The notes under the pieces are model-generated. The model did no database searches. It was not told where the DNA came from and saw only the letters and a program-made list of their open reading frames with translations. Made by a program: the position numbers and the translations under genes. DNA of 13,383 bases, from assembly GCA_045599485.1 (NCBI GenBank), contig JAZRWA010000117.1, positions 1 to 13,383 of the forward strand, read 5' to 3'. Shown here piece by piece: positions 1 to 12,441 of the stretch; position 1 is the first letter of the stretch; each line of letters starts with the position of its first letter. Source of the DNA: Clostridia bacterium (GTDB lineage: Bacteria > Bacillota > Clostridia > Christensenellales > Aristaeellaceae).

Positions 1-421
1 CATCGGTGAAGGAGTAGAATGCTTCCTGAATGACGGAAGGGAAAGGGGATGTCTGCTCGTTCAATCCGGACGCGTCATAGGGAACAGGCTGTCCCTCGAA
101 GTACTCGGGGTAAAGAATGGCCAGCGTGACGGTGGGACGAAGGATGCCGGAAGCGAGAAAGTCAGCGGCGGCAGAGGCATCGCTGACAGCAGAGACAGCG
201 GTTTCGCCGTTCAGCGAAGGATAAGTGATACCAATGGTACGGTAGAGTGTGGGGCTGCTGTCGTGATCGACAAAACGAAGTTCCACATTGTTTTCGAACT
301 ACTCGGGAACGATGATACGCATGGTATTCCAGAGGGTGTCACAGACTGAAAGATCCTACGCGAAGGCGGGAGAAGCTGCCAAACAGAACAGCAACAGAAT
401 CAGGAACAGTTTTGTTTTCAT
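1..421 (-). CDS. Secreted hypothetical protein (N-terminal ~140 codons; C-terminus lies beyond the window start), read through two in-frame TAG codons at 356..358 and 299..301
   Basis: ATG at 421..419 is followed by MKTKLFLILLLFCLAASPAFA, a typical Sec signal peptide with an A-x-A site. I checked the same frame (plus-strand triplets starting at position 2) codon by codon. It holds no TAA or TGA down to position 2, only the two TAGs. It is absent from the ORF track because TAG splits it and it is open-ended. No protein family recognised. Confidence 0.5.
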
Positions 422-453: not shown

Positions 454-1962
454 TTAATCGACGGGGTAGGAGTAGCCGAACATGCTGGAAAGATCACGAC
501 ATTTGTCGGGATTGACGTTGGCCGCACGGTTGATCATATCGCCCATGAACCACATGAAGGTGCTTCCGCCGCCGTCCAGATTGAGCGCCTGCGTGCAGCC
601 CATGCCAAGCATGTGGTTGGCGAGCCAACGGAAGGTGCAGCCGTTGGAGGTGGAGATACGTCCCTGTACCAGAACCGCCCAGTAATGGCAGGGTTCAACC
701 ATACCAAGGGCCATGCGCGGGTTTTTGTCGTTGTTAAGCACATTGCTGATGGAAAGGCTTTCGTTGACGATGCCGTCTTCAATGAGGATAGGACCGAAAG
801 CGAACGTATCGGTGACGCCCATCTGCAGGTATTCCTCGGCGGTGAGCTCATCACTGTCATAGACTCGCATGGTGCCGTCGTTGAACAGCGCCAGTACATC
901 AAGCGGCGGGAAGTTTTTGTTGCCCTTGGGTCGGGTGACGGTGGAGATGATCTCGCCGCCGCGGATGATGATGCCTTCGGGCAGTTTGTTATAATGACGG
1001 ATGCCGAAATAGTCGTCGCTGAAGGCAAACAGCGCGTTGTACTGCTTGACAATATCAAAGGGACCGATCAGATTGTAGCCGTCCGCCTTGCGTCCTTTGC
1101 CGAGCATGGCAGAAGGCAGCGAGTTGGGAGTGCAGTAGATTTCTGCTTCGAACCATGTCATCAGGGGGCTCTTGGTGGAGTAACGGCGGATGGCGATGGA
1201 AAGATCATGGCTGATGTAATACCACTGACCGTCATCCCGGTTGGAGTAGGAGAAGGGTTTGGCGGATTCATCCGCCAGGAAGTGCTCCTCATTCAGTTCG
1301 GGAAGTTCCACCTGCTTCTGGGGCCCCTTGGGGGTTGCAGTCACCTTGGGCGTCGGGGTAGGCTTGGGAGTGGGAGACGGCGTAGGGGAAGGCGTGGGCA
1401 GCGTGAAAAGCAGCTCCTGTTCCCCGGCGGTCAGATAGCCGGTCTGCTCGTGACCGAGATACGACTGAAAGGACTTGGTTGCGGTGATCAGGGTCTTGTT
1501 GTAGGTGCCCGCGGTAGCGGTGGAGTTGAAATAGCGCCAGAGGATCAGCTGCTTCTTGGCTGCCAGCACATCATCACCGCTGCATCCGTCATAGAAATCA
1601 CGGTAGCTGTTGCCGGTATATTCGGGCAGCGTAACAGATTCGCCGTTCAAAGCAGCAGAGAGCTTCCGGCTGTAGGCATTATCCGAATAGATCAGCGTTT
1701 GCAGCTCCTGCGTGGCGATACCTGTCTCGGCAAAGCCGCAATCGGATTCAAACTGGCGGATACGCTTTTCGGTATCGGAAGTGAAATCCTCTGTGAACTT
1801 ATTGGAAGTGAAATATCCCAGTTCGTACAGACGCTTTTTAAGCGCTTTGACGTCATCACCGCTGCTGCCGTTTTTGAGGGTACGGTAAGTGCCCTCCGCG
1901 GAGGCAAAGCTCAGAAGGAACAACAGCAGGAAGGTTACGATAAGCAGAATTGTTTTTTTCAT
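454..1962 (-). CDS. Secreted cell-wall-associated protein: signal peptide, two peptidoglycan-binding (PG_binding_1-like) repeats, Pro/Thr linker, C-terminal phosphodiester glycosidase (NAGPA/DUF2233-like) domain
   Basis: 502-aa ORF. N-terminus MKKTILLIVTFLLLFLLSFASA|EG. Two repeats of the G..GDDV..L...L...GY pattern (SSGDDVKALKKRLYELGYF, CSGDDVLAAKKQLILWRYF). TPSPTPSPTPKPTPTPK linker. C-terminal ALNLDGGGSTFMW motif typical of the phosphodiester glycosidase family. TAA stop at 454..456. Confidence 0.85.
   Translation of the reverse strand: MKKTILLIVTFLLLFLLSFASAEGTYRTLKNGSSGDDVKALKKRLYELGYFTSNKFTEDFTSDTEKRIRQFESDCGFAETGIATQELQTLIYSDNAYSRKLSAALNGESVTLPEYTGNSYRDFYDGCSGDDVLAAKKQLILWRYFNSTATAGTYNKTLITATKSFQSYLGHEQTGYLTAGEQELLFTLPTPSPTPSPTPKPTPTPKVTATPKGPQKQVELPELNEEHFLADESAKPFSYSNRDDGQWYYISHDLSIAIRRYSTKSPLMTWFEAEIYCTPNSLPSAMLGKGRKADGYNLIGPFDIVKQYNALFAFSDDYFGIRHYNKLPEGIIIRGGEIISTVTRPKGNKNFPPLDVLALFNDGTMRVYDSDELTAEEYLQMGVTDTFAFGPILIEDGIVNESLSISNVLNNDKNPRMALGMVEPCHYWAVLVQGRISTSNGCTFRWLANHMLGMGCTQALNLDGGGSTFMWFMGDMINRAANVNPDKCRDLSSMFGYSYPVD
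1318..1401 (-). repeat. Low-complexity Pro/Thr-rich linker-coding repeat inside the 454..1962 CDS
   Basis: Encodes LPTPSPTPSPTPKPTPTPKVTATPKGP. On the plus strand this appears as reiterated GG(N)G(T/A)(N) units (ggcgtcggggtaggcttgggagtgggagacggcgtaggggaaggcgtggg). Confidence 0.6.
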
Positions 1963-2067
1963 CTGATTTTTTTCCTAAATCGCATTCGTGCATTTACGAC
2001 AGCACGCCCCGAGCCCGAAAACAAAGCATTTCCGGGCCCGGAGCGGGCAGAAAAAGCATAGAAATAA

Positions 2068-3108
2068 TTATTTGGCGTTTTTGACCTGATCCCAGAAGGT
2101 GTTGTAGAGGCTCAGGGTCTTATCATCCAGGTCGTGATAGAATTCGCAGCGGGCAATCACTTCGTCGGAGGGATTGATGGTCTCGTTTTCGGTATACTCT
2201 TCACCCATCAGATCGATGGCACCCTGGTTGGGGCTGGAGTAGAAGATGTATTCACAGTTCATCTGGGCGATGTCGGGACGGCAGAGGAAGTCGATCAGCT
2301 TCTCGGCGTTTTCCTTGTTCTTGGCATCGGCGGGGATGACGAGGGGATCGATCCAGATGTTGCTGCCTTCCATGGGCACCACATAGTCAAGGTCTTCGTT
2401 GCCGTCCATGGCGTACAGCGCGTCGCCGCTGTACACAACAGCCAGAGCGGCCTCACCCTTGATCATAGCGTCCTTGGTTTCATCCACATAGTAGGCTTTG
2501 ACAAGGGGTTTCTGTTCCAGGAGGGAGTTTTTGGCTTCGTTGAGCTCTTTGATGTCGGCACTGTTGGCGCTGTAGCCATTGACTTTGAGGCCGATCAGCA
2601 TCGCGTCACGCAGAGAGAGCATCATGAAGATCTGGTCGGCATACTGCTCGTCCCAGAGAATCTTCCAGGAGGAGGCGTCCTCAGCGCTCACTTTGGTGGT
2701 ATCGAAGAGGATGCCCAGCGTGCCCCACATGAAGGGGACGGTGAACTTTCCTTCCGGATCGTAGTCGGCATTGCGAAGATCCTCACGGATATAGGCGAAG
2801 TTGGGGATGTTGTCAAAGTTGATCTCCTGAATGAGCTCTTCCTTGATCATGCGCTCTACGCAATAATCGGAAGGTACGACCAAATCGTAGCTGCCGCGGC
2901 TGGTGCGCAGGGCAATCATCATGTCTTCATTTTCGGTAAAGTACATACAGTTGACCTTGATGCCGGTTTCGTCGGTGAACATATCGAGAACGGCGGGATC
3001 CATGTAGTCGTACCAGTTGAAGAGATTGACTACTTCTTCAGCGGATGCGACAGAGAGGAGGGAGATGAGCAGCAGCGCTGCCATGAGCAGGGAAACGAAT
3101 TTTTTCAT
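2068..3108 (-). CDS. potD: Spermidine/putrescine ABC transporter substrate-binding protein
   Basis: 346-aa ORF with a cleavable signal peptide (LLSVASA|EE). PotD-like sequence throughout (NLFNWYDYMDP..., FTVPFMWGTLGI, SNIWIDPLVIP). GGAGG RBS upstream of the ATG at 3108. Last gene of the regulator-potABCD string. TAA stop. Confidence 0.93.
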   Translation of the reverse strand: MKKFVSLLMAALLLISLLSVASAEEVVNLFNWYDYMDPAVLDMFTDETGIKVNCMYFTENEDMMIALRTSRGSYDLVVPSDYCVERMIKEELIQEINFDNIPNFAYIREDLRNADYDPEGKFTVPFMWGTLGILFDTTKVSAEDASSWKILWDEQYADQIFMMLSLRDAMLIGLKVNGYSANSADIKELNEAKNSLLEQKPLVKAYYVDETKDAMIKGEAALAVVYSGDALYAMDGNEDLDYVVPMEGSNIWIDPLVIPADAKNKENAEKLIDFLCRPDIAQMNCEYIFYSSPNQGAIDLMGEEYTENETINPSDEVIARCEFYHDLDDKTLSLYNTFWDQVKNAK

Positions 3109-3157
3109 TTGACTGTCCTCCGTTTTTTAATATGCATAAGCCATATGGCCGGATGCC

Positions 3158-3934
3158 TTATTTTTTTTCGTCTGCTGTCATGGTGCGGCGATTGACAACA
3201 ATCAAAAGTACCAGCATGACAACAAACATGATACTGCTCAGGGCGTACATGGTGGGCTTGATGCCCTTGCGTGCCTGAGAATAAATGAGGGTGGAAAGAT
3301 TCTGCACCAGCGGCGAAGTGGTGAAATAACTGATGGTGAAGTCGTCCAGAGACAGGGTGAACGCGAAAATGGCACCGGTGACCACGCCGGGCATGATCTG
3401 CGGAATGATCACGTGGCGAAGTGCGTAGGACGGTGTTGCACCAAGGTCAAGCGCGGCCTAATACGTGTTCTGATTCATTTGCGACAGCTTTGGCATGACT
3501 GATACGATGACATAGGGGATGTCAAAGGTGATGTGAGCCAGAAGCATCGTGACGTATCCGCGTTCCACTCTCGTGAAGATGAAGAGCAGCATCAGCGAGA
3601 TACCTGTAACAATGTCGGGCATGGTCATGGGAATGTTGTTGAGGGCCAGCATGAGACCCTGCGGACGCTTTTTCATCGCATGGATGCCGATGGCGGCAAG
3701 GGTGCCAAGAAGGGTGGCGAATACCGTAGCCAGAAGAGCGATCGTGACGGTGATGAAAAGTGCCTGCATGATATCGGCATTACCGAACAGTTCACCATAC
3801 CAACGGAAGGAGACGCCTTCAAATTTGGCACGGCTTGTGCCGCTGTTGAAGGAGAAAACGATCATGACGATGATGGGGATGTAAAGCAAAAGCAGCAGCA
3901 GCGCCAGATAGATGCGTTTAAGTGCTTTTGTCAT
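3158..3934 (-). CDS. potC: Spermidine/putrescine ABC transporter permease, full length only if the in-frame TAG at 3458..3460 is read as sense
   Basis: ORF-track pieces 3458..3934 and 3158..3412 share one frame (both starts are 2 mod 3). The stretch between them translates as ...SQMNQNTY-[TAG]-AALDLGATPSYALRHVIIPQIMPGV..., the ABC-permease EAA loop. Total 258 codons, a normal PotC length. ATGA start/stop overlap with potB at 3931..3934. TAA stop at 3158..3160. Confidence 0.85.
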
Positions 3935-4995
3935 ACGGCACCGCCTCCTTCTCCCTCGGGATCGACTTTGCGCAAAATTCCGATGGAAATGAGCATCAAA
4001 ATCATCATGATCAGCGACATGGCGCTGCCGGGGTTCCAGTCGGAGATCGTGGCGGAAAGGAACTTGCTTTCAATCAGATCGCCGAAAAGCTGCACCTTGC
4101 TGCCGCCAAGCAGTCGGCTGATGTAGAAGGTCGTCACAGCGGGCATGAAAACCATGGTAATACCGCTGACCACGCCGGGAATCGAAAGAGGCATGGTGAC
4201 TTTGTAGAACGTCTGCCATTTGTTGCAGCCCAGGTCCATCGCCGCTTCGGAGAGCTTGTAGTCCATTTTGTTAAGGACATTGTAGATAGGGAAAACCATG
4301 AACGGCAGGAAGTTGTAGATCATGCCGAACAGTACGGCACCGGAGGTGTTGAGCAGCTTCAGACGACCAATGCCGATCCATTCGAGGAAGCTGTTGATGA
4401 TACCGTTGCTTTCCATCAGTTCCATCAGTGCGACGGTACGCAGCAGGAAGTTCATCCACATGGGAACGATGAAGAGCACGATCAGTACAGGACCGGCTTT
4501 GAAGCCGCGCTCCGTCATGAAATGCGCTGCAGGGTAACCGAGCAGCAGGCAGGCGACTGTGCACAGGAACGCCATCCACACGGAGAACACAAGCGTGGAA
4601 ATATTGACGGCACCGTAACCGAGGCCGAGGTCTTCGGCGGTGATACCCATTTCGGCATATACGGCAAGGTCATCCGCCATATTTTTGCGGGCCAGATAGT
4701 TGCTGTCCCAGAAAGCGGCGAAATTATCCAGTGTCAGGGCGCCGTTGACATCGGTAAAGGCGTAATAGGCCACCAACAGACACGGAACGACCGTGAAGAT
4801 GATGATCCACAGTACATAGGGGGAAGCGAACAGGGGGCGATTGACGCCGTGATTGTGCTTAACATACCCGGCAACGAGTACAATGAAGCCAATCAGGCCC
4901 AATCCCATCAGCAGATAGGCCCAGATGGGCAGCTCAAACGTTGTCAACTGCGACCGCACCTCCCGCTGCATAGGGATTCCAGTCCTCGGTGGCAT
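3931..4995 (-). CDS. potB: Spermidine/putrescine ABC transporter permease
   Basis: 354-aa ORF, multi-TM, with the EAA loop [28 protein letters not shown]. The true start is more likely the ATG at 4971..4969 (GAGGA about 11 nt upstream) than the one at 4995, which has no RBS. Overlaps the 3' end of potA. TGA stop overlaps the potC start. Confidence 0.9.
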
Positions 4996-6028
4996 GCATG
5001 ATGTGAATGTTGAAGGGGACGATGCTCAGACCAACGCGGCTTCCTTCAGGCTGCATCGTGGTGGAATGCACCTTCCAGGTGGAGTGGCCGGCGTCAATGA
5101 TCATTTCATAATGTACGCCCTTGAACAGTACGCTCTTGACAGTGCCGGTGATCTGACCGATATCTTCGCCCACGACCATGATATCTTCGGGTCGTACAAC
5201 AACATCCACGGGTACATTTTCTCCAAAACCGGAGTCAACACACTGGAAGCGGGTGGAACAGAATTCAACCAGCTCGTCACGGATCATGGTGCCCCGGAAA
5301 ATGTTGGATTCGCCAATGAAGTTGGCGACGAAGGCATTTTTGGGTTCATCGTAAATATCCTTCGGCTTGCCGATCTGAAGGATTTTGCCGCTGCGCATGA
5401 CCACGATGGTATCACTCATGGTCAGGGCTTCTTCCTGATCGTGCGTCACGTACAGGAAGGTGATGCCCAAGCGCTGCTGCATGTTTTTGATCTCCAGCTG
5501 CATGTCCTTGCGGAGCTTGAGATCCAGGGCCCCCAGAGGTTCATCCAGCAGAAGCATTTCGGGCTCGTTGACCAGCGCGCGGGCAATGGCGATGCGCTGC
5601 TGCTGACCGCCGGACAGAGAATCGACATCACGTTTGCCGTATCCCTGAAGGTTGACCAGGTCAAGCATTTTGTTGACTTTTTTATCGATTTCTCCACGGC
5701 TCATTTTTTTGATCTTCAGGCCGAAAGCAATGTTGTCGTGGACGTTCAGATGTGGGAAAAGCGCATACTTCTGAAAAACGGTGTTGACGCGGCGCTTGTA
5801 GGGAGGAAGACCGACGATGTCCTTGCCTTCGAACATGACCTGACCGGAGGTAGGAGACTCGAAGCCGCCGATGATGCGCAGCGTGGTGGTTTTGCCGCAA
5901 CCGGAGGGCCCCAGCAGGGTGACAAATTCCTTTTTGCGGATATAGAGGCTGATATTGTCCAGAACCGTAACGCCGTCATAGTCCTTGCAGAGGTTCTGAA
6001 GATGAATCATATAGGGTGAATCGCTCAT
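4934..6028 (-). CDS. potA: Spermidine/putrescine ABC transporter ATP-binding protein
   Basis: 364 aa. Walker [13 protein letters not shown] signature LSGGQQQR, Walker B LLLDEP, C-terminal TOBE-like regulatory domain. AAGGAG RBS 9 nt upstream of the ATG at 6028. TGA stop. Confidence 0.95.
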
Positions 6029-6052
6029 GAAGGCAATCTCCTTTATATTTTA

Positions 6053-6598
6053 TCAGAAGCTTGGGGGATTGGAGACCCAGATGACTTTGGCAGGGCGTTT
6101 GCCGGTATTGATCAGCCGGTGCGGCGCGGTCGGGTGAATACAGAAGCTGCTGCCGCATTTGACACGGTGCCGCTGCTCGCCGAGCTTGAGCACAACGCTG
6201 CCGGAGAGAACATAACCGAATTCCTCTCCTTCGTGCGGAGGAAGTTCGAAGGACTCTCCTCCGGGACCGATCTAAAGCAGGATGGGTTCCATGTCGTTTT
6301 TCTGAGCGCTGGGTACCAGCCAGACAACGCTGCCCCGGAGTGCTTCTTCATCGGTTTTTTCAAACATGTCGACAGCGTCAAATACAATTTTTTCGTCATC
6401 GTCGTTTTCTGAAAAAAAGGTTTTGAGATCACTGCCGAGGCACTCGAGCATATCAGTCAGCGTAGCAATGGAGGGCGACGCCAGGTCGCGCTCCACCTGC
6501 GAAATGAAGCCTTTGCTCAGTTCACAGCGGTCGGCCATTTCTTCCTGAGTCAGGTTGCGCTGCAAACGCAGACGGTGCAGCTTTTCACCGATGTTCAT
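6053..6598 (-). CDS. XRE-family HTH + cupin transcriptional regulator (PuuR-like architecture), full length only if the in-frame TAG at 6272..6274 is read as sense
   Basis: N-terminal HTH (MNIGEKLHRLRLQRNLTQEEMADRCELSKGFISQVERD). After ...MEPILL-[TAG] the same frame continues IGPGGESFELPPHEGEEFGYVLSGSVVLKLGEQRHRVKCGSSFCIHPTAPHRLINTGKRPAKVIWVSNPPSF, a complete cupin barrel. It ends at TGA 6053..6055, 24 nt before the potA start. 181 codons is the normal length for this family. Confidence 0.85.
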
Positions 6599-6656
6599 GT
6601 TCTGCCTCTTTGATGCGTGAAGTTTAGTAAAAGTAAATTTTGTGTGAAAGTCCGGA

Positions 6657-6673
6657 GTTTAGAATTACTAAAC
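6657..6673. promoter_or_regulatory. Candidate operator: inverted repeat GTTTAG-N5-CTAAAC, with a further GTTTAGTAA copy at 6622..6630
   Basis: Perfect 6-bp arms separated by aatta. The arm plus flank (GTTTAGTAA, read on the minus strand) recurs on the plus strand at 6622..6630. Both lie in the leader of the XRE-cupin/pot operon, downstream of its putative -10. Confidence 0.3.
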
Positions 6674-6688
6674 AGGCGAACGCAAATA

Positions 6689-6717
6689 AGTAAACCATAA
6701 AACATGGGAGATGTCAA
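6689..6717 (-). promoter_or_regulatory. Putative sigmaA promoter for the regulator-potABCD operon
   Basis: On the minus strand: TTGACA (6717..6712), 17-nt spacer, then TGgTTTACT (-10 at 6694..6689, 4/6 match with an extended TG). Position and orientation fit the ATG at 6598. Confidence 0.35.
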
Positions 6718-6739
6718 TATGATTTTTATTAACAATTTG

Positions 6740-6768
6740 TTGCAAAGCGACTGGAATTCTGGTATAAT
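6740..6768 (+). promoter_or_regulatory. SigmaA promoter of the ctsR-mcsA-mcsB-clpC operon
   Basis: TTGCAA (6740..6745), exactly 17 nt, then TGgTATAAT (perfect -10 at 6763..6768 with an extended -10 TG at 6760..6761). Lies 50 nt upstream of the ctsR ATG. Confidence 0.7.
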
Positions 6769-6774
6769 AGCAAT

Positions 6775-6791
6775 GGTCAAAGTTAGTCAGT
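6775..6791 (+). promoter_or_regulatory. CtsR operator (direct heptad repeat)
   Basis: GGTCAAA-GTT-AGTCAGT compared with the published CtsR box RGTCAAA-NAN-RGTCAAA. The first heptad is perfect and the second matches 5/7. It sits immediately downstream of the -10 and overlaps the expected transcription start, as in autoregulated ctsR/clpC operons. Confidence 0.7.
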
Positions 6792-6818
6792 GAACAGCAT
6801 TGACCGGAGGAAGCCTAT

Positions 6819-7310
6819 ATGCGTTTAAGTGATGCAATCGAACAATTTATCAAAGAAATGATGCAGGCGGGAGAGCAGCCCGGCATTGATCTGAAAAGGA
6901 ATGAGCTGGCAGATTATTTCCATTGTGCGCCTTCGCAGATCAATTATGTGCTCTCAACCCGCTTTACACCCGATCATGGGTATGTGACCAGCAGTCAGCG
7001 CGGCGGCGGCGGTTATATCCGTATTGTGCGGATCGTACGCCGTCCGGAGGAACAATTGAACTATCTGCTCAACGAGCGGATCGGCAATGCCATTACCGCT
7101 GCGGACGCAATGATACTGTGCGGGCAATTGTTGGAAAATGATGTGATTACCGAGGATGAAGCTTTGCTGATGAAATCTGCGGTTTCGCAGGCAGCATTTG
7201 CGGTGCCCATTCCTGAGAATGTAAAGGACGCGGTGCGTGCCAAGGTGCTGCGCAGTATGCTGCTTGAAGTAATGCAGAGAAAGGACGGCGGGCGAGATGA
7301 TGATGTGTGA
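6819..7310 (+). CDS. ctsR: Class III stress-gene transcriptional repressor CtsR
   Basis: 163 aa. MRLSDAIEQFIKEMM... N-terminus and the diagnostic ...SQRGGGGYIRIVRI glycine-rich winged-HTH loop. GGAGGA RBS 8 nt upstream. First gene of the operon. TGA stop. Confidence 0.93.
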   Translation: MRLSDAIEQFIKEMMQAGEQPGIDLKRNELADYFHCAPSQINYVLSTRFTPDHGYVTSSQRGGGGYIRIVRIVRRPEEQLNYLLNERIGNAITAADAMILCGQLLENDVITEDEALLMKSAVSQAAFAVPIPENVKDAVRAKVLRSMLLEVMQRKDGGRDDDV

Positions 7311-7824
7311 AGAATGCGGAAAGCGTCCTGCGATCTTGAACGTTACAGTGCTATTTGCTGGGAAAAAGATCAGCCGCAGTCTTTGCCCTGTGTGCGCGGC
7401 CAAAATGCAGCGCGGGGACGCGGCGGGCGCCCAGAGCGCGGTCATGGGGTCTTTGCGTACAGAGGAAAGTGTTCAGCACCTCAGCTGCCCTCAATGCGGA
7501 ACGACCGGAGAAAAGCTGCTGAAGGAGGGCCGGGTCGGCTGTGCAGAGTGCTATAAAACCTTCAGATCGATTCTGAAGGATGTTCTGATGAGCCTGAACG
7601 GTGTGGATCATCATGTGTCGGACGGATGGGAAGAGGATCATTCGGATGCTCCGGAGGAAATTCAGCTGGAGGTCGCGCAGATGACCGAACCGTCTGATGA
7701 AGAGAAAAAAGCGGCTTCACTGCGGGAAGCTTTGTTTGAAGCGGTGCAGAGAGAAGATTTTGAGGAAGCAGCAAGGCTGCGGGATCAGATCCGCGCAGCG
7801 GAAAGCGTGAAGCATGAAGGATGA
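7297..7824 (+). CDS. mcsA: McsA (protein-arginine kinase activator; zinc-finger + UVR motif protein)
   Basis: 175 aa. Paired CxxC motifs (CEECGKRPA..., CPVCAAK, CPQCG...GCAECY) and a C-terminal UVR motif (REDFEEAARLRDQIRAAE). Overlaps the ctsR stop. Three consecutive ATGs at 7297..7305 leave the start ambiguous by up to 2 codons. TGA stop. Confidence 0.88.
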   Translation: MMMCEECGKRPAILNVTVLFAGKKISRSLCPVCAAKMQRGDAAGAQSAVMGSLRTEESVQHLSCPQCGTTGEKLLKEGRVGCAECYKTFRSILKDVLMSLNGVDHHVSDGWEEDHSDAPEEIQLEVAQMTEPSDEEKKAASLREALFEAVQREDFEEAARLRDQIRAAESVKHEG

Positions 7825-8800
7825 AATCATCAACGGTTCTGTCACGCTGAGAAGAAATTATGCCGATCTTCCTTTTGACGCGTTGAAAAACAGCGATACC
7901 GCCCTGCCAATCCTGACGCGCGTGACGACGCGGCTGCAGCAGGAAGAAGAGACATGGATCGCACTTCCCGAATCACGCATGGACGAAGAAGGAAAAAGGG
8001 TTTTTCGATTTCTGCGGTTGATCAGCAACGATATTGACGATGCTGTGAATGCACAGCTGTTTGTGCTGAAAGGGGACAGCGCAGCGGTACAGGCCGCGGC
8101 AGCGGATCATGTGGCGGTGACTGTAACTCGTTCTGCTGATGATCTGGAGTTTTCCTATAATAAATGCAAAGATATCATTCGAAAACTGGAGGACAGTCAT
8201 CCCTATGCAAGAACGGGGGAATTAGGTTATCTGACAGCACGCCCCTGCGATGCGGGAAGCGGACTGAGAGCTTCCCTGCTGCTGCATTTGCCAATGCTTC
8301 AATTCTCCCGGCAGCTGCCGATGGCGATGAAGCTTTGCGGAGACAAAGGACTGCTTTTGCGGCCTGAAACCGTAGCGATGCCGGGTCAGGCGCCGGCACT
8401 GTACCTGATATAGAACCGGGTTACCATGGGCAAAACCGATGAGGAGCTGATGACGGCTGTAAAAAAAGGCGCGGAAGTTCTGATAGCACTTGAACGAAAA
8501 CAACGGGAAGAAGCCCGGGTAAAGCAATCGGATGGGCCGCTTGATGCCGTCTATCGTGCGTATGGAGAGGCACGCTATGCCCGCCGATATACACGGGCGG
8601 AATGTGGGGTGCTGTGGTCCAGAATGACGCTGGGGTATTCATTGGGCGTCATGCTGGTGCGTCCGCCGGAGCTGGATAAGCTGTGGAGCATGGCGTTTGA
8701 AAACCAGCGGGAATGGAAGGCCGCGGCGGCTCAGCAGGCAGTCAGCGAGGATGTACTGCGGGCCAGAAAAATCAGAGAATTACTGAGCGGAGGTGCCTGA
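7814..8800 (+). CDS. mcsB: McsB-type protein arginine kinase homologue (divergent), full length only if the in-frame TAG at 8411..8413 is read as sense
   Basis: ORF-track pieces 7814..8413 and 8426..8800 share one frame. The junction reads ...GQAPALYLI-[TAG]-NRVTMGKTDEELMTAV..., matching the conserved McsB ...QISNQxTLGxSE... segment. The phosphagen-kinase signature GYLTARPCDAGSGLRASLLLHLP is present upstream. 328 codons. Sits between mcsA and clpC as expected. TGA stop overlaps the clpC ATG. Confidence 0.85.
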
Positions 8801-11202
8801 TGGCAACCTATAACAGATTGAATGAAAAAGCAAAGCGTGTTCTGGAAACGGCGCGTACGGAAGCGGCAAATCTGATGCAAAACTGTATCGGTACAGAGCA
8901 TTTGCTGCTGTCACTGCTGATTTGCGCCCCGGAGGATGTGCCGGAGCTGCCGGAGAGCCTGAATCCCGAAATGGTACGCTCCGCCATTCGCATTCTGAGC
9001 GCGGGCAACGGACAAGGTGAGCTGCCGGATGAGCTGACGCCAAACGCAAAAAAAGTGCTGGATAACAGCTATCGCATTGCCCGCCAGTTTCAGCAGAACT
9101 ATGTGACCGCGGCGCATTTGTGGCTGGCGTTATTGGATGAAGAAGAGGGCATGGCCTCACGCATTCTGAACGCACCCGGCATTGACCGAAAAAAGCTGCG
9201 GGAAAATGCTGCACGGAAGGCTGCGGGGGAAAACAATGCGCCTTCCAAAGAAAAGGAAGAAAAGACACTGCTGGATCAGTATGGTATCGATCTGACGGAA
9301 AAAGCGCGTTGCAACGAGCTGGATCCTGTGATTGGACGAGATCGTGAGACTGAGCGTATCATTCAGATCTTATCCCGCCGTACCAAGAACAATCCGGTAC
9401 TCATCGGCGAACCCGGTGTGGGAAAAACGGCTGTCGCAGAAGGACTGGCTGAAAAAATCATCAGCGGACAGATTCCCGAGACGCTGGTTGGAAAACGGCT
9501 GATCAGCCTGGATACCGGTGCGTTGATTGCGGGTACCAAGTTCCGCGGAGAGTTTGAAGATCGGCTTACGGGGCTGATGCGGGAAGTGAAAGAAGCCGGC
9601 GATGTGATTCTGTTTATCGATGAACTTCAGAACATCGTCGGCATGGGCAAGGGTGAAGGCACGATGGACGCAGCCAATATCCTAAAGCCCATGCTCTCCC
9701 GCGGTGAGCTGCAGTGCGTCGGCGCTACTACCACAGATGAGTATCGTAAGCACATTGAAAAGGATGCAGCGCTGTCCCGTCGCTTTCAGCCTGTCATGGT
9801 GGACGAACCGACCGAGGAAGAAGCGGTCATGATCCTGAAGGGACTGCGTGATAAATACGAAGCGCATCATCGTGTGCACTTTACCGATGAAGCCCTTGAA
9901 GCGGCAGTGAAGCTGTCCGCACGCTATGTGGCAGACAGGTGCATGCCCGATAAGGCGGTGGACCTGATGGACGAGGCAGGCTCCAGGGTACGTATTGCTT
10001 CCTTTACGCCTCCGCCCGATCTTAAGGAGCAGGAAAGTTCACTGCAGGCAATATCCCGCGAAAAGCAGGAAGCCATCGACCGTCAGGATTATGAGCGTGC
10101 CGCGGCTTTACGGGATGATGAGCATGCCATCCGGGCTGAGATGGATCGAAGCAGAACGGAATGGGAGAACAAGAAGCTATCTTCGGTTGGTGTGGTCAGC
10201 GAAGAGGATATTGCCGCTGTGGTATCCGCGTGGACGGGTATTCCGGTACAGCGGATGACAGAAGTGGAAAGTGAAAGGCTTTTGCACTTGGAAGAGATCC
10301 TGCATCAGCGCGTGGTGGGACAGACCGAGGCGGTTTCGGCAGTATGCCGGGCGATCCGCCGCGCAAGGGCAGGCCTGAAGGACCCCAAACGCCCCATCGG
10401 CAGCTTTTTGTTCCTCGGTCCGACAGGCGTCGGAAAAACGGAGCTCAGCCGGGCCCTGGGCGAAGCGATGTTCGGGGATGAAAACGCGCTGATCCGCCTG
10501 GATATGAGCGAGTACATGGAAAAGCATACCGTATCCAGAATGGTAGGCGCACCGCCCGGCTATGTAGGATACGAAGAGGGCGGTCAGCTGACGGAAGCAG
10601 TACGGCGCAGACCCTATTCAGTGGTGCTGTTTGACGAAATCGAAAAGGCGCATCCCGATGTGTTCAATATGCTGCTGCAGGTATTGGAGGACGGACGCCT
10701 TACCGATAATAACGGGCGCACAGTCAGCTTCCGAAATTGTATTATCGTCATGACCTCCAACGCGGGTGCGCAGGCGATCAACGAAAACCGCGTGCTTGGC
10801 TTTGGCAGCAGCGGCGCGGCGGATTATGATCGTATGCGCGACAGCGTGAAGGATGCGCTGAAGAGGATGTTCAAGCCGGAGTTTTTGAATCGAATCGATG
10901 AAACGGTGATCTTCCATGCGCTGACGAAGGAAGAGATCAGGCAGATCGCTGCCCTGATGCTGGAACAGATGAGAAAACGCCTAAACGAAAAGGGAGTGCG
11001 GCTCAGCTTCAGCAACGAAGCCATAGCACTACTTGCTGACGGGGGATTTGATGAAAAGCTCGGTGCGCGTCCGCTGCGCCGGGAAATTCAACGGAGCGTA
11101 GAGGACAGCCTCAGTGAAGAGCTGATCGCAGGCAGGCTGAAGCTGGATGATAGCATCCGCATGTATGTAAAAAACGGAAAGATCGCTTTTAAAAAGCAAT
11201 AA
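8800..11202 (+). CDS. clpC: ATP-dependent Clp protease ATP-binding subunit ClpC (class III stress AAA+ unfoldase)
   Basis: 800 aa starting [22 protein letters not shown] (Clp_N repeats). Walker A motifs GEPGVGKT and [11 protein letters not shown] linker ([12 protein letters not shown]). C-terminal ClpB_D2-small domain. I prefer the ATG at 8800 (TGATG overlap with the mcsB stop) to the track start at 8713, which lies inside mcsB. TAA stop. Confidence 0.95.
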
Positions 11203-11237
11203 AAAACAGCCCCGAAGGCAGCACGCTTTCGGGGCTG
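11201..11237. terminator. Bidirectional intrinsic terminator between convergent clpC and the HD-hydrolase gene
   Basis: 13-bp GC-rich stem CAGCCCCGAAGGC / GCTTTCGGGGCTG (11207..11219 pairs with 11225..11237, one G-U pair) with a 5-nt loop. An A6 tract at 11201..11206 gives a U-tract for the minus-strand transcript. Confidence 0.75.
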
Positions 11238-11249
11238 TACATTATGGAA

Positions 11250-11894
11250 TTAATGTTCTCCGTCCCACTACAGCAGGAATTCATCAAGGAAAGTATGCAT
11301 GAAACGATCGCGTTCCGCGGCAATGCGGGCGGCGGAGGGGGTGTTCATCATGTCCTTGAGGAGGAACAGCTTTTCGTAAAAGTGATTGACTGTGGAAGAG
11401 ACAGAACGACGGTATTCGAAGGCGGACATGTTGGCTGTCGGCGGTACGGCCGGGTCGTGAAGCGGGCGGTTGCGGCTGCCGCCGAAAGCGAAGGCTCTAG
11501 CGACACCGATTGCGCCGATGGCATCCAGACGGTCAGCGTCCTGCACGCATTTGCCCTCGAGTGTTTTCGGCGTGACGGAATCGGTACCGCGGAAGGAAAT
11601 CTCGCCGATGATCTCAAGGATAGCGTTGGCGGTATCCTGTATTACGTCATTCTATCGAAGGAAGGACGTCGCACGCAAAAGCCCCTCGTGCGTGTCGGGG
11701 GAAAGCTTGAAATCATCCACATCATGAAGGATTGCTGCAAGCGCGGTGATGAACGGGTCGGCACCTTCCTGCTTTGCAAGTGTCAATGCCAAGCGGTAAA
11801 CACGCTGAGTATGGCTGAAATCATGCCCGCTGAAGTCATTCACGAAAACGCTTTGCGCAAAGGAGAGCGCTTTTGAGATGAGTGCGTCTCCCAT
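11250..11894 (-). CDS. HD-domain metal-dependent phosphohydrolase (YedJ/YpgQ-like), with an in-frame TAG at 11652..11654 and a second TAG at 11268..11270, six codons before a TAA
   Basis: ORF-track pieces 11652..11894 and 11268..11546 share one frame. The gap translates [35 protein letters not shown] and leads into [21 protein letters not shown] motif ...AAILHDVDD and the DADRLDA motif are present. If TAG is sense the frame continues -WDGEH- to TAA at 11250..11252, 12 nt from the terminator stem. If TAG terminates here the end is 11268. Confidence 0.8.
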
Positions 11895-11895
11895 T

Positions 11896-12441
11896 TTAAA
11901 CCTCTAACGTATGATAGACTTCGCCGTCAAGGTTCTTCCACTCGAAATGGCAGTTGTCCATGATCATGTAGCTATGGGCAGTGTTCTCCTTCGGCAGGGA
12001 TACGGAACCGGGGTTGAGATACAGATTGTGATTGCCAAAATCCAGCCATGAAGGCACATGCGTGTGACCGTGCAGCAGAATGTCACCATTTTGCAGCGGC
12101 GGCGGCGTCATGGTGTTGAATACATGACCATGAGTGGCGTAAATCAGACGGGAACCGGCTTCAAAAATGGCGGTATCGCTCATGATGGGGAATTGCAGTA
12201 CCATCTGATCCACTTCTGCATCGCAGTTGCCGCGGACACAGATGATACGGCTCGACAGTGGATTCAGCATGGCAATGACGGATTTGGGAGCGTATTCCTC
12301 AGGCAGGTCGTTGCGGGGACCGTGATACAGGATATCACCGAGAAGCAGCAGCCGATCGGCATTTTCAGCCTCAAAGCGCTGAAGGAGTTGACGGCAATAA
12401 TATGCGGAACCGTGGATATCGGATGCAATCATCAGTTTCAT
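11896..12441 (-). CDS. yfcE: YfcE-family metallophosphoesterase (MJ0936-type phosphodiesterase)
   Basis: 181 aa. [12 protein letters not shown]..., [24 protein letters not shown] and GHTH motifs, collinear with E. coli YfcE. GGAGG RBS 6 nt upstream. TAA stop 1 nt before the HD-gene ATG, which suggests translational coupling. Confidence 0.9.

Follow-up and report, generated by a model that had tools for sequence, protein, structure and literature searches.

The mcsB gene on contig JAZRWA010000117.1 of the Clostridia bacterium assembly GCA_045599485.1 (Aristaeellaceae), whose 13,383 nucleotides (nt) were analyzed as a whole and are called the window in the following, carries an in-frame TAG at codon 200. 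The analysis of this and further TAGs indicates that UAG has probably been reassigned throughout this uncultured Clostridia lineage of gut type from a stop to a sense codon, most likely for glutamate (Glu). Many unrelated genes, also in related strains, show read-through of TAG as a single codon without a common sequence context, and no use as a stop was found in the sample. The reassignment is based on in-frame TAGs in unrelated genes, the lack of TAG terminators in a small sample of genes, the conservation of the TAGs together with the selection acting on the genes, and the agreement of the alignment columns. That TAG is a sense codon in the lineage is very probable, and a Glu residue at these positions is, judged from homologous sequences, quite probable.

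The mcsB gene and its in-frame TAG

The mcsB reading frame was found to be 329 codons in length up to and including the TGA at 8798–8800. The peptide around the TAG is PALYLI*NRVTMGKTDEELMTAV, in short form PALYLI*NRVTMG, where the asterisk marks the TAG. A previous interpretation of the window, made from the sequence alone (the sequence-only reading), had placed a TAG in the mcsB frame within this peptide and had described a terminal TGA that overlaps the ATG of clpC. Both were confirmed, the latter as TGATG at 8798–8802 with one shared A. The number of codons after the TAG was determined to be 128 and not 124 as given there; the lower number is obtained when counting starts at the following ATG (8426). 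No Shine-Dalgarno sequence was found before this ATG, and a naturally split McsB is therefore not supported. All orthologues outside the lineage are single full-length McsB proteins with a sense codon at the TAG position; split or short orthologues with an independent ribosome binding site, named in the sequence-only reading as evidence against a single gene, were not seen.

The Pfam domain PF00217 (ATP:guanido phosphotransferase) spans residues 40–229 of the protein and thereby crosses the TAG (E-value 9e-25), and the NCBIfam model NF002194 (protein arginine kinase) was aligned to residues 3–324 with 134 bits. The scores are below the NCBIfam equivalog cut-offs, with 134 versus 385 bits for NF002194 and 112 versus 500 for NF053707. 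The protein represents a divergent subfamily, in which LENRVTxG replaces the ISNQxTLG motif of canonical McsB and phosphagen kinases. Judged by its phosphagen-kinase-type domain, its full-length similarity and its place in the ctsR-mcsA-mcsB-clpC operon, the protein is assigned to McsB. Since it misses the equivalog cut-offs and its motif is divergent, an activity as arginine kinase is only presumed.

Seven in-frame TAGs in five genes

For the annotation of the window, open reading frames (ORFs), Pfam and PDB matches were used, resulting in 14 genes which cover 95% of the sequence, 13 of them complete. Seven in-frame TAGs were identified in five of the 14 genes, namely one each in mcsB, potC and the gene of an XRE-cupin regulator and two each in the genes of an HD hydrolase and a secreted protein (Table 1). 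The sequence-only reading had grouped the mcsB TAG with that in potC, which is borne out; the two HD TAGs were absent from it. All seven internal stops are TAG, with no TAA or TGA, whereas the 13 complete genes end in TGA (7) or TAA (6) and none in TAG. In total, TAG accounts for 7 of 4286 codons (1.6 per 1000). The GC content is 53% and the window bears no sign of gene decay.

Table 1. Positions of the genes with in-frame TAGs and of the genes adjacent to mcsB (nt; asterisk, TAG).
Feature	Position	Strand	In-frame TAG	Remarks
Secreted-protein gene, 5' part	1-421	-	356-358 (codon 22); 299-301 (codon 41)	runs off the left end of the window; AFA*DL, VPE*FEN
potC, permease	3158-3934	-	3458-3460 (codon 159)	first residue of EAA motif, NTY*AALDLGA
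XRE-HTH/cupin regulator gene	6053-6598	-	6272-6274 (codon 109)	EPILL*IGPGG
ctsR	6819-7310	+	none	ends in TGA
mcsA	7297-7824	+	none	ends in TGA
mcsB, McsB-like protein arginine kinase	7814-8800	+	8411-8413 (codon 200)	328 codons if TAG is sense, then TGA; TAG in frame with ATG 7814, inside kinase domain; PF00217, NF002194, operon position
clpC	8800-11202	+		ATG overlaps mcsB TGA by one base; ends in TAA
HD-domain phosphohydrolase gene (YedJ/YpgQ-like)	11250-11894	-	11652-11654 (codon 81, site 1); 11268-11270 (codon 209, site 2)	SFLR*NDV (site 1), EFLL*WDGEH (site 2); ends in TAA

With TAG as a sense codon, the protein lengths are in accordance with those of homologues, with 328 amino acids (aa) for McsB (homologues 316–331), 258 for PotC (255–264), 181 for the XRE regulator (181) and 214 for the HD protein (213–214). 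The Pfam, NCBIfam and PDB alignments continue across the in-frame TAGs. The possibility that the ribosome shifts frame or hops at the TAG was rejected, because each TAG faces exactly one residue in the homologue alignments, which are collinear.

The sequences 18 nt on either side of the seven TAGs were searched for a shared context, and none was found. For the 100 nt beginning with each TAG, six of the seven sites do not fold better than shuffled sequences (z scores between -1.1 and +1.1); the 100-nt stretch of the seventh includes the terminator between clpC and the HD gene. A context-dependent recoding of the SECIS or PYLIS type or a programmed read-through was thus rejected for lack of a common context or structure, which favors a context-free decoding by a tRNA.

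Conservation of the TAGs in related contigs

Relatives of the same lineage were found by protein searches and exact look-ups as short contigs with 83–91% nucleotide identity to the window. They originate from four other samples (L001 from ERR11637140, L082 and L090 from SRR27361835, L089 from ERZ27247129 and L092 from SRR28408121) and from a fifth, L091 (SRR17543910), whose sample is not known to differ from that of the window. The mcsB TAG is kept in L001 and L082 despite synonymous changes in the neighboring codons (CTG TAC CTG ATA TAG versus CTG TAT TTG GTA TAG), and the XRE TAG is kept in L082. In the secreted protein, codon 22 is TAG in five of five contigs, while codon 41, a TAG in the window, is replaced by GAG in each of the four relatives that cover it (L089–L092). 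The complete secreted protein is 292 aa in length with a C-terminal PG_binding_1 domain. Beyond the end of the window its gene contains, in the relatives, TAGs at codons 173 and 237, the latter inside PG_binding_1, and terminates in TGA.

The synonymous divergence (dS) between the window and L082 ranges between 0.4 and 1.2. In mcsB, the ratio of nonsynonymous to synonymous divergence (dN/dS) hardly differs between the parts before (0.111) and after the TAG (0.118), which together with the conserved TAG supports the earlier claim that the codon is decoded and mcsB is one gene. Downstream of the TAG in the XRE gene, 26 synonymous and no nonsynonymous differences were counted between the window and L082. 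The dN/dS of the secreted protein was 0.15–0.2 in frame compared to 1.3–1.9 in the shifted frames.

In public protein sets, the proteins of the window are present as fragments called with genetic code 11, with 199 aa for McsB, 158 aa for PotC, 108 aa for the XRE regulator and 80 aa for the HD protein (P0001, P0434, P0435 and P0436). The C-terminal part of the L082 McsB was called as a separate ORF of 116 aa. Exact look-ups with ClpC and CtsR of the window returned no other contig, and scans of metagenome contigs with the N-terminal part of McsB and with ClpC revealed no close relative. Among the matches listed for ClpC in the GTDB representative genomes, the best had 59% identity, by which neither the lineage nor its sister clade with 70% identity was reached. 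A literature search with the accessions of the runs and assemblies gave no hit.

Two further observations concern the secreted protein. L091 and the NCBI assembly GCA_024500545.1 share an identical PG-binding/NAGPA protein. On L089 (3311–4072), the gene of the secreted PG-binding protein is followed by a gene for a SCIFF peptide (48 aa, ending in TAA) and by the start of an unannotated ORF, which is probably the radical-SAM maturase of SCIFF. These genes are situated past the left end of the window.

Terminator use in a sister clade

The ClpC homologues with approximately 70% identity belong to many metagenome-assembled genomes (MAGs) deposited as 'Clostridia bacterium'. The contigs L083–L088 of this sister clade are syntenic with positions 454–11202 of the window (PG-binding/NAGPA, potD-C-B-A, XRE-cupin, ctsR, mcsA, mcsB, clpC). 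Their genes are all intact and no in-frame TAG was found in them. At the TAG positions of the window, the sister clade has Glu codons in potC (GAG) and mcsB (GAA or GAG); in the XRE gene, a Ser (AGC) or His (CAC) codon is found.

Only one of the 53 genes called in the sister clade ends in TAG, compared to approximately 17% in other Clostridia-like loci (44 of 254 in a crude ORF count); the chance of at most one TAG in 53 at this rate is approximately 6e-4. The single call, a 113-aa ORF on the minus strand of L087 (772–1113), is itself doubtful. It matches no family, its composition is odd, and it is unlikely to represent a real gene. Further TAG-ending ORFs of the sister clade from the crude stop count were discarded as antisense artefacts. 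The difference between 1 in 53 and 17% suggests that nearly all TAG terminators had been lost by the time of codon capture, and the gene calls suggest that the sister clade may represent a codon-capture intermediate. The sample for this comparison is small and comprises one genomic neighborhood in few species. In the lineage itself, the terminators seen outside the 13 of the window are the TGA of the secreted gene and the TAA of the SCIFF gene described above.

Glutamate as the most likely amino acid

The alignment of McsB orthologues proposed in the sequence-only reading was carried out. Among the 18 closest full-length homologues (35–53% identity), the TAG column contains Glu in 17 and glutamine (Gln) in one. 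The TAG had been placed opposite Ser before, which holds for the distant canonical McsB proteins and does not hold for the nearest subfamily. The column of the potC TAG contains Glu in E. coli PotC, and the orthologues of the sister clade have GAG there; with Glu inserted, the potC peptide is NTY-E-AALDLGATPSYALR. The clearest column is that of the second HD site (codon 209), in which all 120 homologues have Glu followed by an invariant Trp. The two remaining columns are variable, with E 40, S 38, K 14 and A 13 among the 120 homologues at the first HD site (codon 81), and T 36, E 17, K 7 and others among 82 homologues at codon 109 of the XRE regulator. PDB alignments for the XRE-cupin column were discarded as too distant for use.

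In a Codetta-style analysis, the log-odds summed over the five columns were +9.5 for Glu. The next residue was Ser with -1.7, when all McsB proteins were used, or Lys with about -4. Gln was found 1, 0, 0, 1 and 0 times among 18, 120, 120, 82 and 3 sequences of the five columns, and did not rank among the six best-scoring residues in any run. The agreement of the columns and the exchange of TAG and GAG between relatives therefore make the residue readable, most likely as Glu. The opposite claim, that it could not be read off by consensus, is not supported, since Glu alone fits all five alignable TAG columns. A homology search with the concatenated HD and secreted proteins returned only HD homologues, and the TAG columns of the secreted protein (two in the window, three in the relatives) thus have no outside homologues for comparison.

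Proposed mechanism

From these data we infer, besides the Glu identity with its strong evidence from the columns, also the decoding tRNA and the fate of release factor 1 (RF1). The ribosome would insert one amino acid at codon 200 of mcsB and continue to the TGA, leaving mcsB as one intact gene. A tRNA with the anticodon CUA would have arisen from tRNA-Glu(CUC) or tRNA-Gln(CUG) by one change in the anticodon and would be charged with Glu. RF1 would be lost or inactive on UAG, with TAA and TGA, both read by RF2, as the only stops. A change from GAG to TAG would then be synonymous, which would explain the TAGs on conserved Glu positions. In the Bacillota, the glutamyl-tRNA synthetase (GluRS) is usually non-discriminating and charges tRNA-Glu, with an anticodon ending in C, as well as tRNA-Gln, with an anticodon ending in G. 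As the enzyme already tolerates different bases at anticodon position 36, the charging of a CUA tRNA is plausible. The full model with Glu at UAG, a dedicated tRNA(CUA) and the loss of RF1 appears reasonably likely.

Several points weigh against this interpretation. Only five TAG columns are alignable and two of them are variable, with T more frequent than E and Ser or His in the sister clade for the XRE regulator, and E about as frequent as S at the first HD site. The sequences within a column are related, so that the log-odds overstate their independence, and the exchange of TAG and GAG at codon 41 of the secreted protein probably goes back to one event in evolution. The tRNA scans took in the window and nine related loci and found no tRNA gene; since none is located on the window or on L001, L082 and L089–L092, the decoding tRNA was not seen. 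The RF1 gene prfA is not on the short contigs of the lineage. The sample of terminators is small, consisting of the 13 window genes and the two from relatives. Finally, the evidence is that of DNA sequence and its translation.

Alternative explanations

One alternative is an ambiguous code with partial termination at UAG. Here, UAG would still be a stop recognized by RF1 but leaky, and a suppressor tRNA or near-cognate reading would yield truncated and full-length products side by side. Ambiguous amber decoding has been described for methanogens that use pyrrolysine (Pyl) (PMC12626013). The rarity of TAG would fit such a state as well. Against leakiness stand the lack of TAG terminators in the sampled genes, the location of TAGs in ordinary housekeeping genes, at Glu positions that are invariant and catalytic or structural, and the missing common context or downstream structure. 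Moreover, the conservation of the TAGs over a dS of approximately 0.6 is hard to reconcile with a costly partial truncation of five proteins. A leaky stop is therefore unlikely.

A decoding of UAG as Gln by a supE-like tRNA-Gln(CUA), as in TAG-recoded phages (code 15), is improbable. Gln is nearly absent from the TAG columns, the observed exchange is that of TAG and GAG and not of TAG and CAG, and the sister clade has GAG, GAA, AGC or CAC at the TAG positions and never CAG or CAA. These findings have to be set against the facts that a change from CAG to TAG is a single transition, that tRNA-Gln(CUA) is the classic natural amber suppressor, and that one McsB homologue has Gln in the TAG column. 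As tRNA-Gln of the Bacillota is first charged with Glu, a suppressor derived from it would also be mechanistically close to the Glu model.

Still less probable is a genome-wide use of UAG for Pyl, which would parallel the archaeal code 34 in bacteria. The codon is the same, Pyl systems occur in some Bacillota, and a genome-wide code with TAG as Pyl was recently shown in archaea. A Pyl codon would not explain that the TAG columns converge on Glu, one of them in 120 of 120 sequences and with log-odds of about -4 for K, or that TAG alternates with GAG in relatives. Genes for Pyl or for methylamine methyltransferases were found on no contig, though only about 25 kb of the lineage were seen.

Inactivating mutations, sequencing or assembly errors or a naturally split McsB, for which the products of 199 aa and 116–124 aa obtained by code-11 gene callers and the change from GAG to TAG as a single G-to-T change, a known artefact of oxidative damage, could be put forward, are excluded for practical purposes by the conservation of the same TAGs in independent assemblies of different runs with 9–17% sequence difference, the purifying selection downstream of the TAG, which equals that upstream, the restriction of all seven internal stops to TAG, the missing Shine-Dalgarno sequence at ATG 8426 and the single proteins in outside orthologues.

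Comparison with known genetic codes

The reassignments of stop codons described in bacteria concern UGA only, to Trp or Gly (Shulgina and Eddy, 2021; gTranslate, 2026), which is also stated in a study on UGA in Actinomycetota from August 2026 (PMC13462651). According to Kivenson et al. (bioRxiv 10.1101/2024.09.30.615893), three codes are known in Bacteria. A reassignment of amber has been described for phages (Gln), archaea (Pyl, code 34) and eukaryotes (Gln, Glu, Leu and others). Targeted literature searches, with papers dated up to August 2026, revealed no report of a cellular bacterium that uses UAG for one of the standard amino acids. A change from stop to sense is thus of a familiar kind, but its occurrence with this codon and amino acid in a bacterium is not. 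We propose with moderate confidence that UAG as Glu is a fourth bacterial code, present in at least four other datasets, with a dispensable RF1 and an origin by codon capture, which would make it the first case of a reassigned amber codon among cellular bacteria.

The situation is similar to the UGA codes, which are translation table 4 (Trp) of Mycoplasmatota, some endosymbionts and Eggerthellaceae and table 25 (Gly) of Absconditabacteria and Gracilibacteria, in that a rare codon is used as sense throughout a lineage in conserved genes and the other two stops carry all termination. As in the Eggerthellaceae (PMC13462651), standard-code relatives very rarely use the codon as a stop. In contrast to these codes, the codon is UAG, the amino acid is probably Glu, the expected loss is that of RF1 and not RF2, and the reassignment is found at a GC content of 53% with no sign of decay. 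With the archaeal code 34 it shares the codon, the genome-wide use in a prokaryote and a coding density that falls little under code 11, which makes such a change hard to detect. Code 34 requires genes for the synthesis and charging of Pyl, whereas the present organism is a bacterium and its columns point to Glu.

TAG-recoded phages (crAss-like, Lak and others; code 15) also use amber as sense by means of a suppressor tRNA. There it is used in late genes and for Gln, whereas here it was found in the chromosomal potABCD and ctsR-mcsA-mcsB-clpC genes, which are syntenic with standard-code MAGs, and the residue is probably Glu. The same step from stop to Glu is known from the eukaryotic UAR codes of peritrich ciliates (table 30) and Blastocrithidia nonstop (table 31), where tRNA-Glu with stop-matching anticodons are used. 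Those codes are nuclear and include UAA together with UAG, whereas TAA still terminates 6 of 13 genes in the window. In the engineered RF1-free E. coli strains C321.deltaA and 'Ochre' (PMC11903333), UAG was likewise freed in a bacterium and given to an amino acid by a tRNA(CUA). These strains are synthetic and every TAG was removed by design; the lineage described here would be their natural equivalent.

If the reassignment is true, it would represent a new bacterial translation table in a bacterium of free-living type with 53% GC and a natural test of the dispensability of RF1, with a sister clade as an apparent codon-capture intermediate. The natural pair of tRNA(CUA) and GluRS would be of interest for code engineering, and the code would have a bearing on conflicts between phage and host codes. 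In practice, gene callers using code 11 split or truncate the genes of this lineage in public databases. Due to the rarity of TAG, heuristics based on coding density are expected to miss the code change.

Gene arrangement and non-coding features

Within the operon of mcsB, the genes ctsR and mcsA overlap by 14 nt and mcsA and mcsB by 11 nt. The start codon of clpC is preceded by a strong Shine-Dalgarno sequence, GGAGGTG at 8789–8795, with a distance of 4–6 nt to the ATG. The translation of clpC therefore need not depend on read-through of mcsB, and the overlap of the mcsB TGA with the clpC ATG does not by itself demand ribosomes arriving from upstream, contrary to what had been suggested.

Upstream of ctsR (region 6740–6791), a sigma-70-like promoter was identified, with TTGCAA and TATAAT (6763–6768) separated by 17 nt. 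On its 3' side a degenerate direct repeat, GGTCAAAGTTAGTCAGT (6775–6791), resembles the CtsR box with three mismatches to the consensus. A search for the consensus CtsR box with at most two mismatches gave no hit, and only the version with three mismatches was found.

The HD gene starts directly after a yfcE-like phosphoesterase gene (11896–12441), with which it probably forms one operon. Between the convergent clpC and HD genes, a very stable GC-rich hairpin with flanking T runs was found at approximately 11208–11238 (z = -5.9), which is probably a bidirectional intrinsic terminator.

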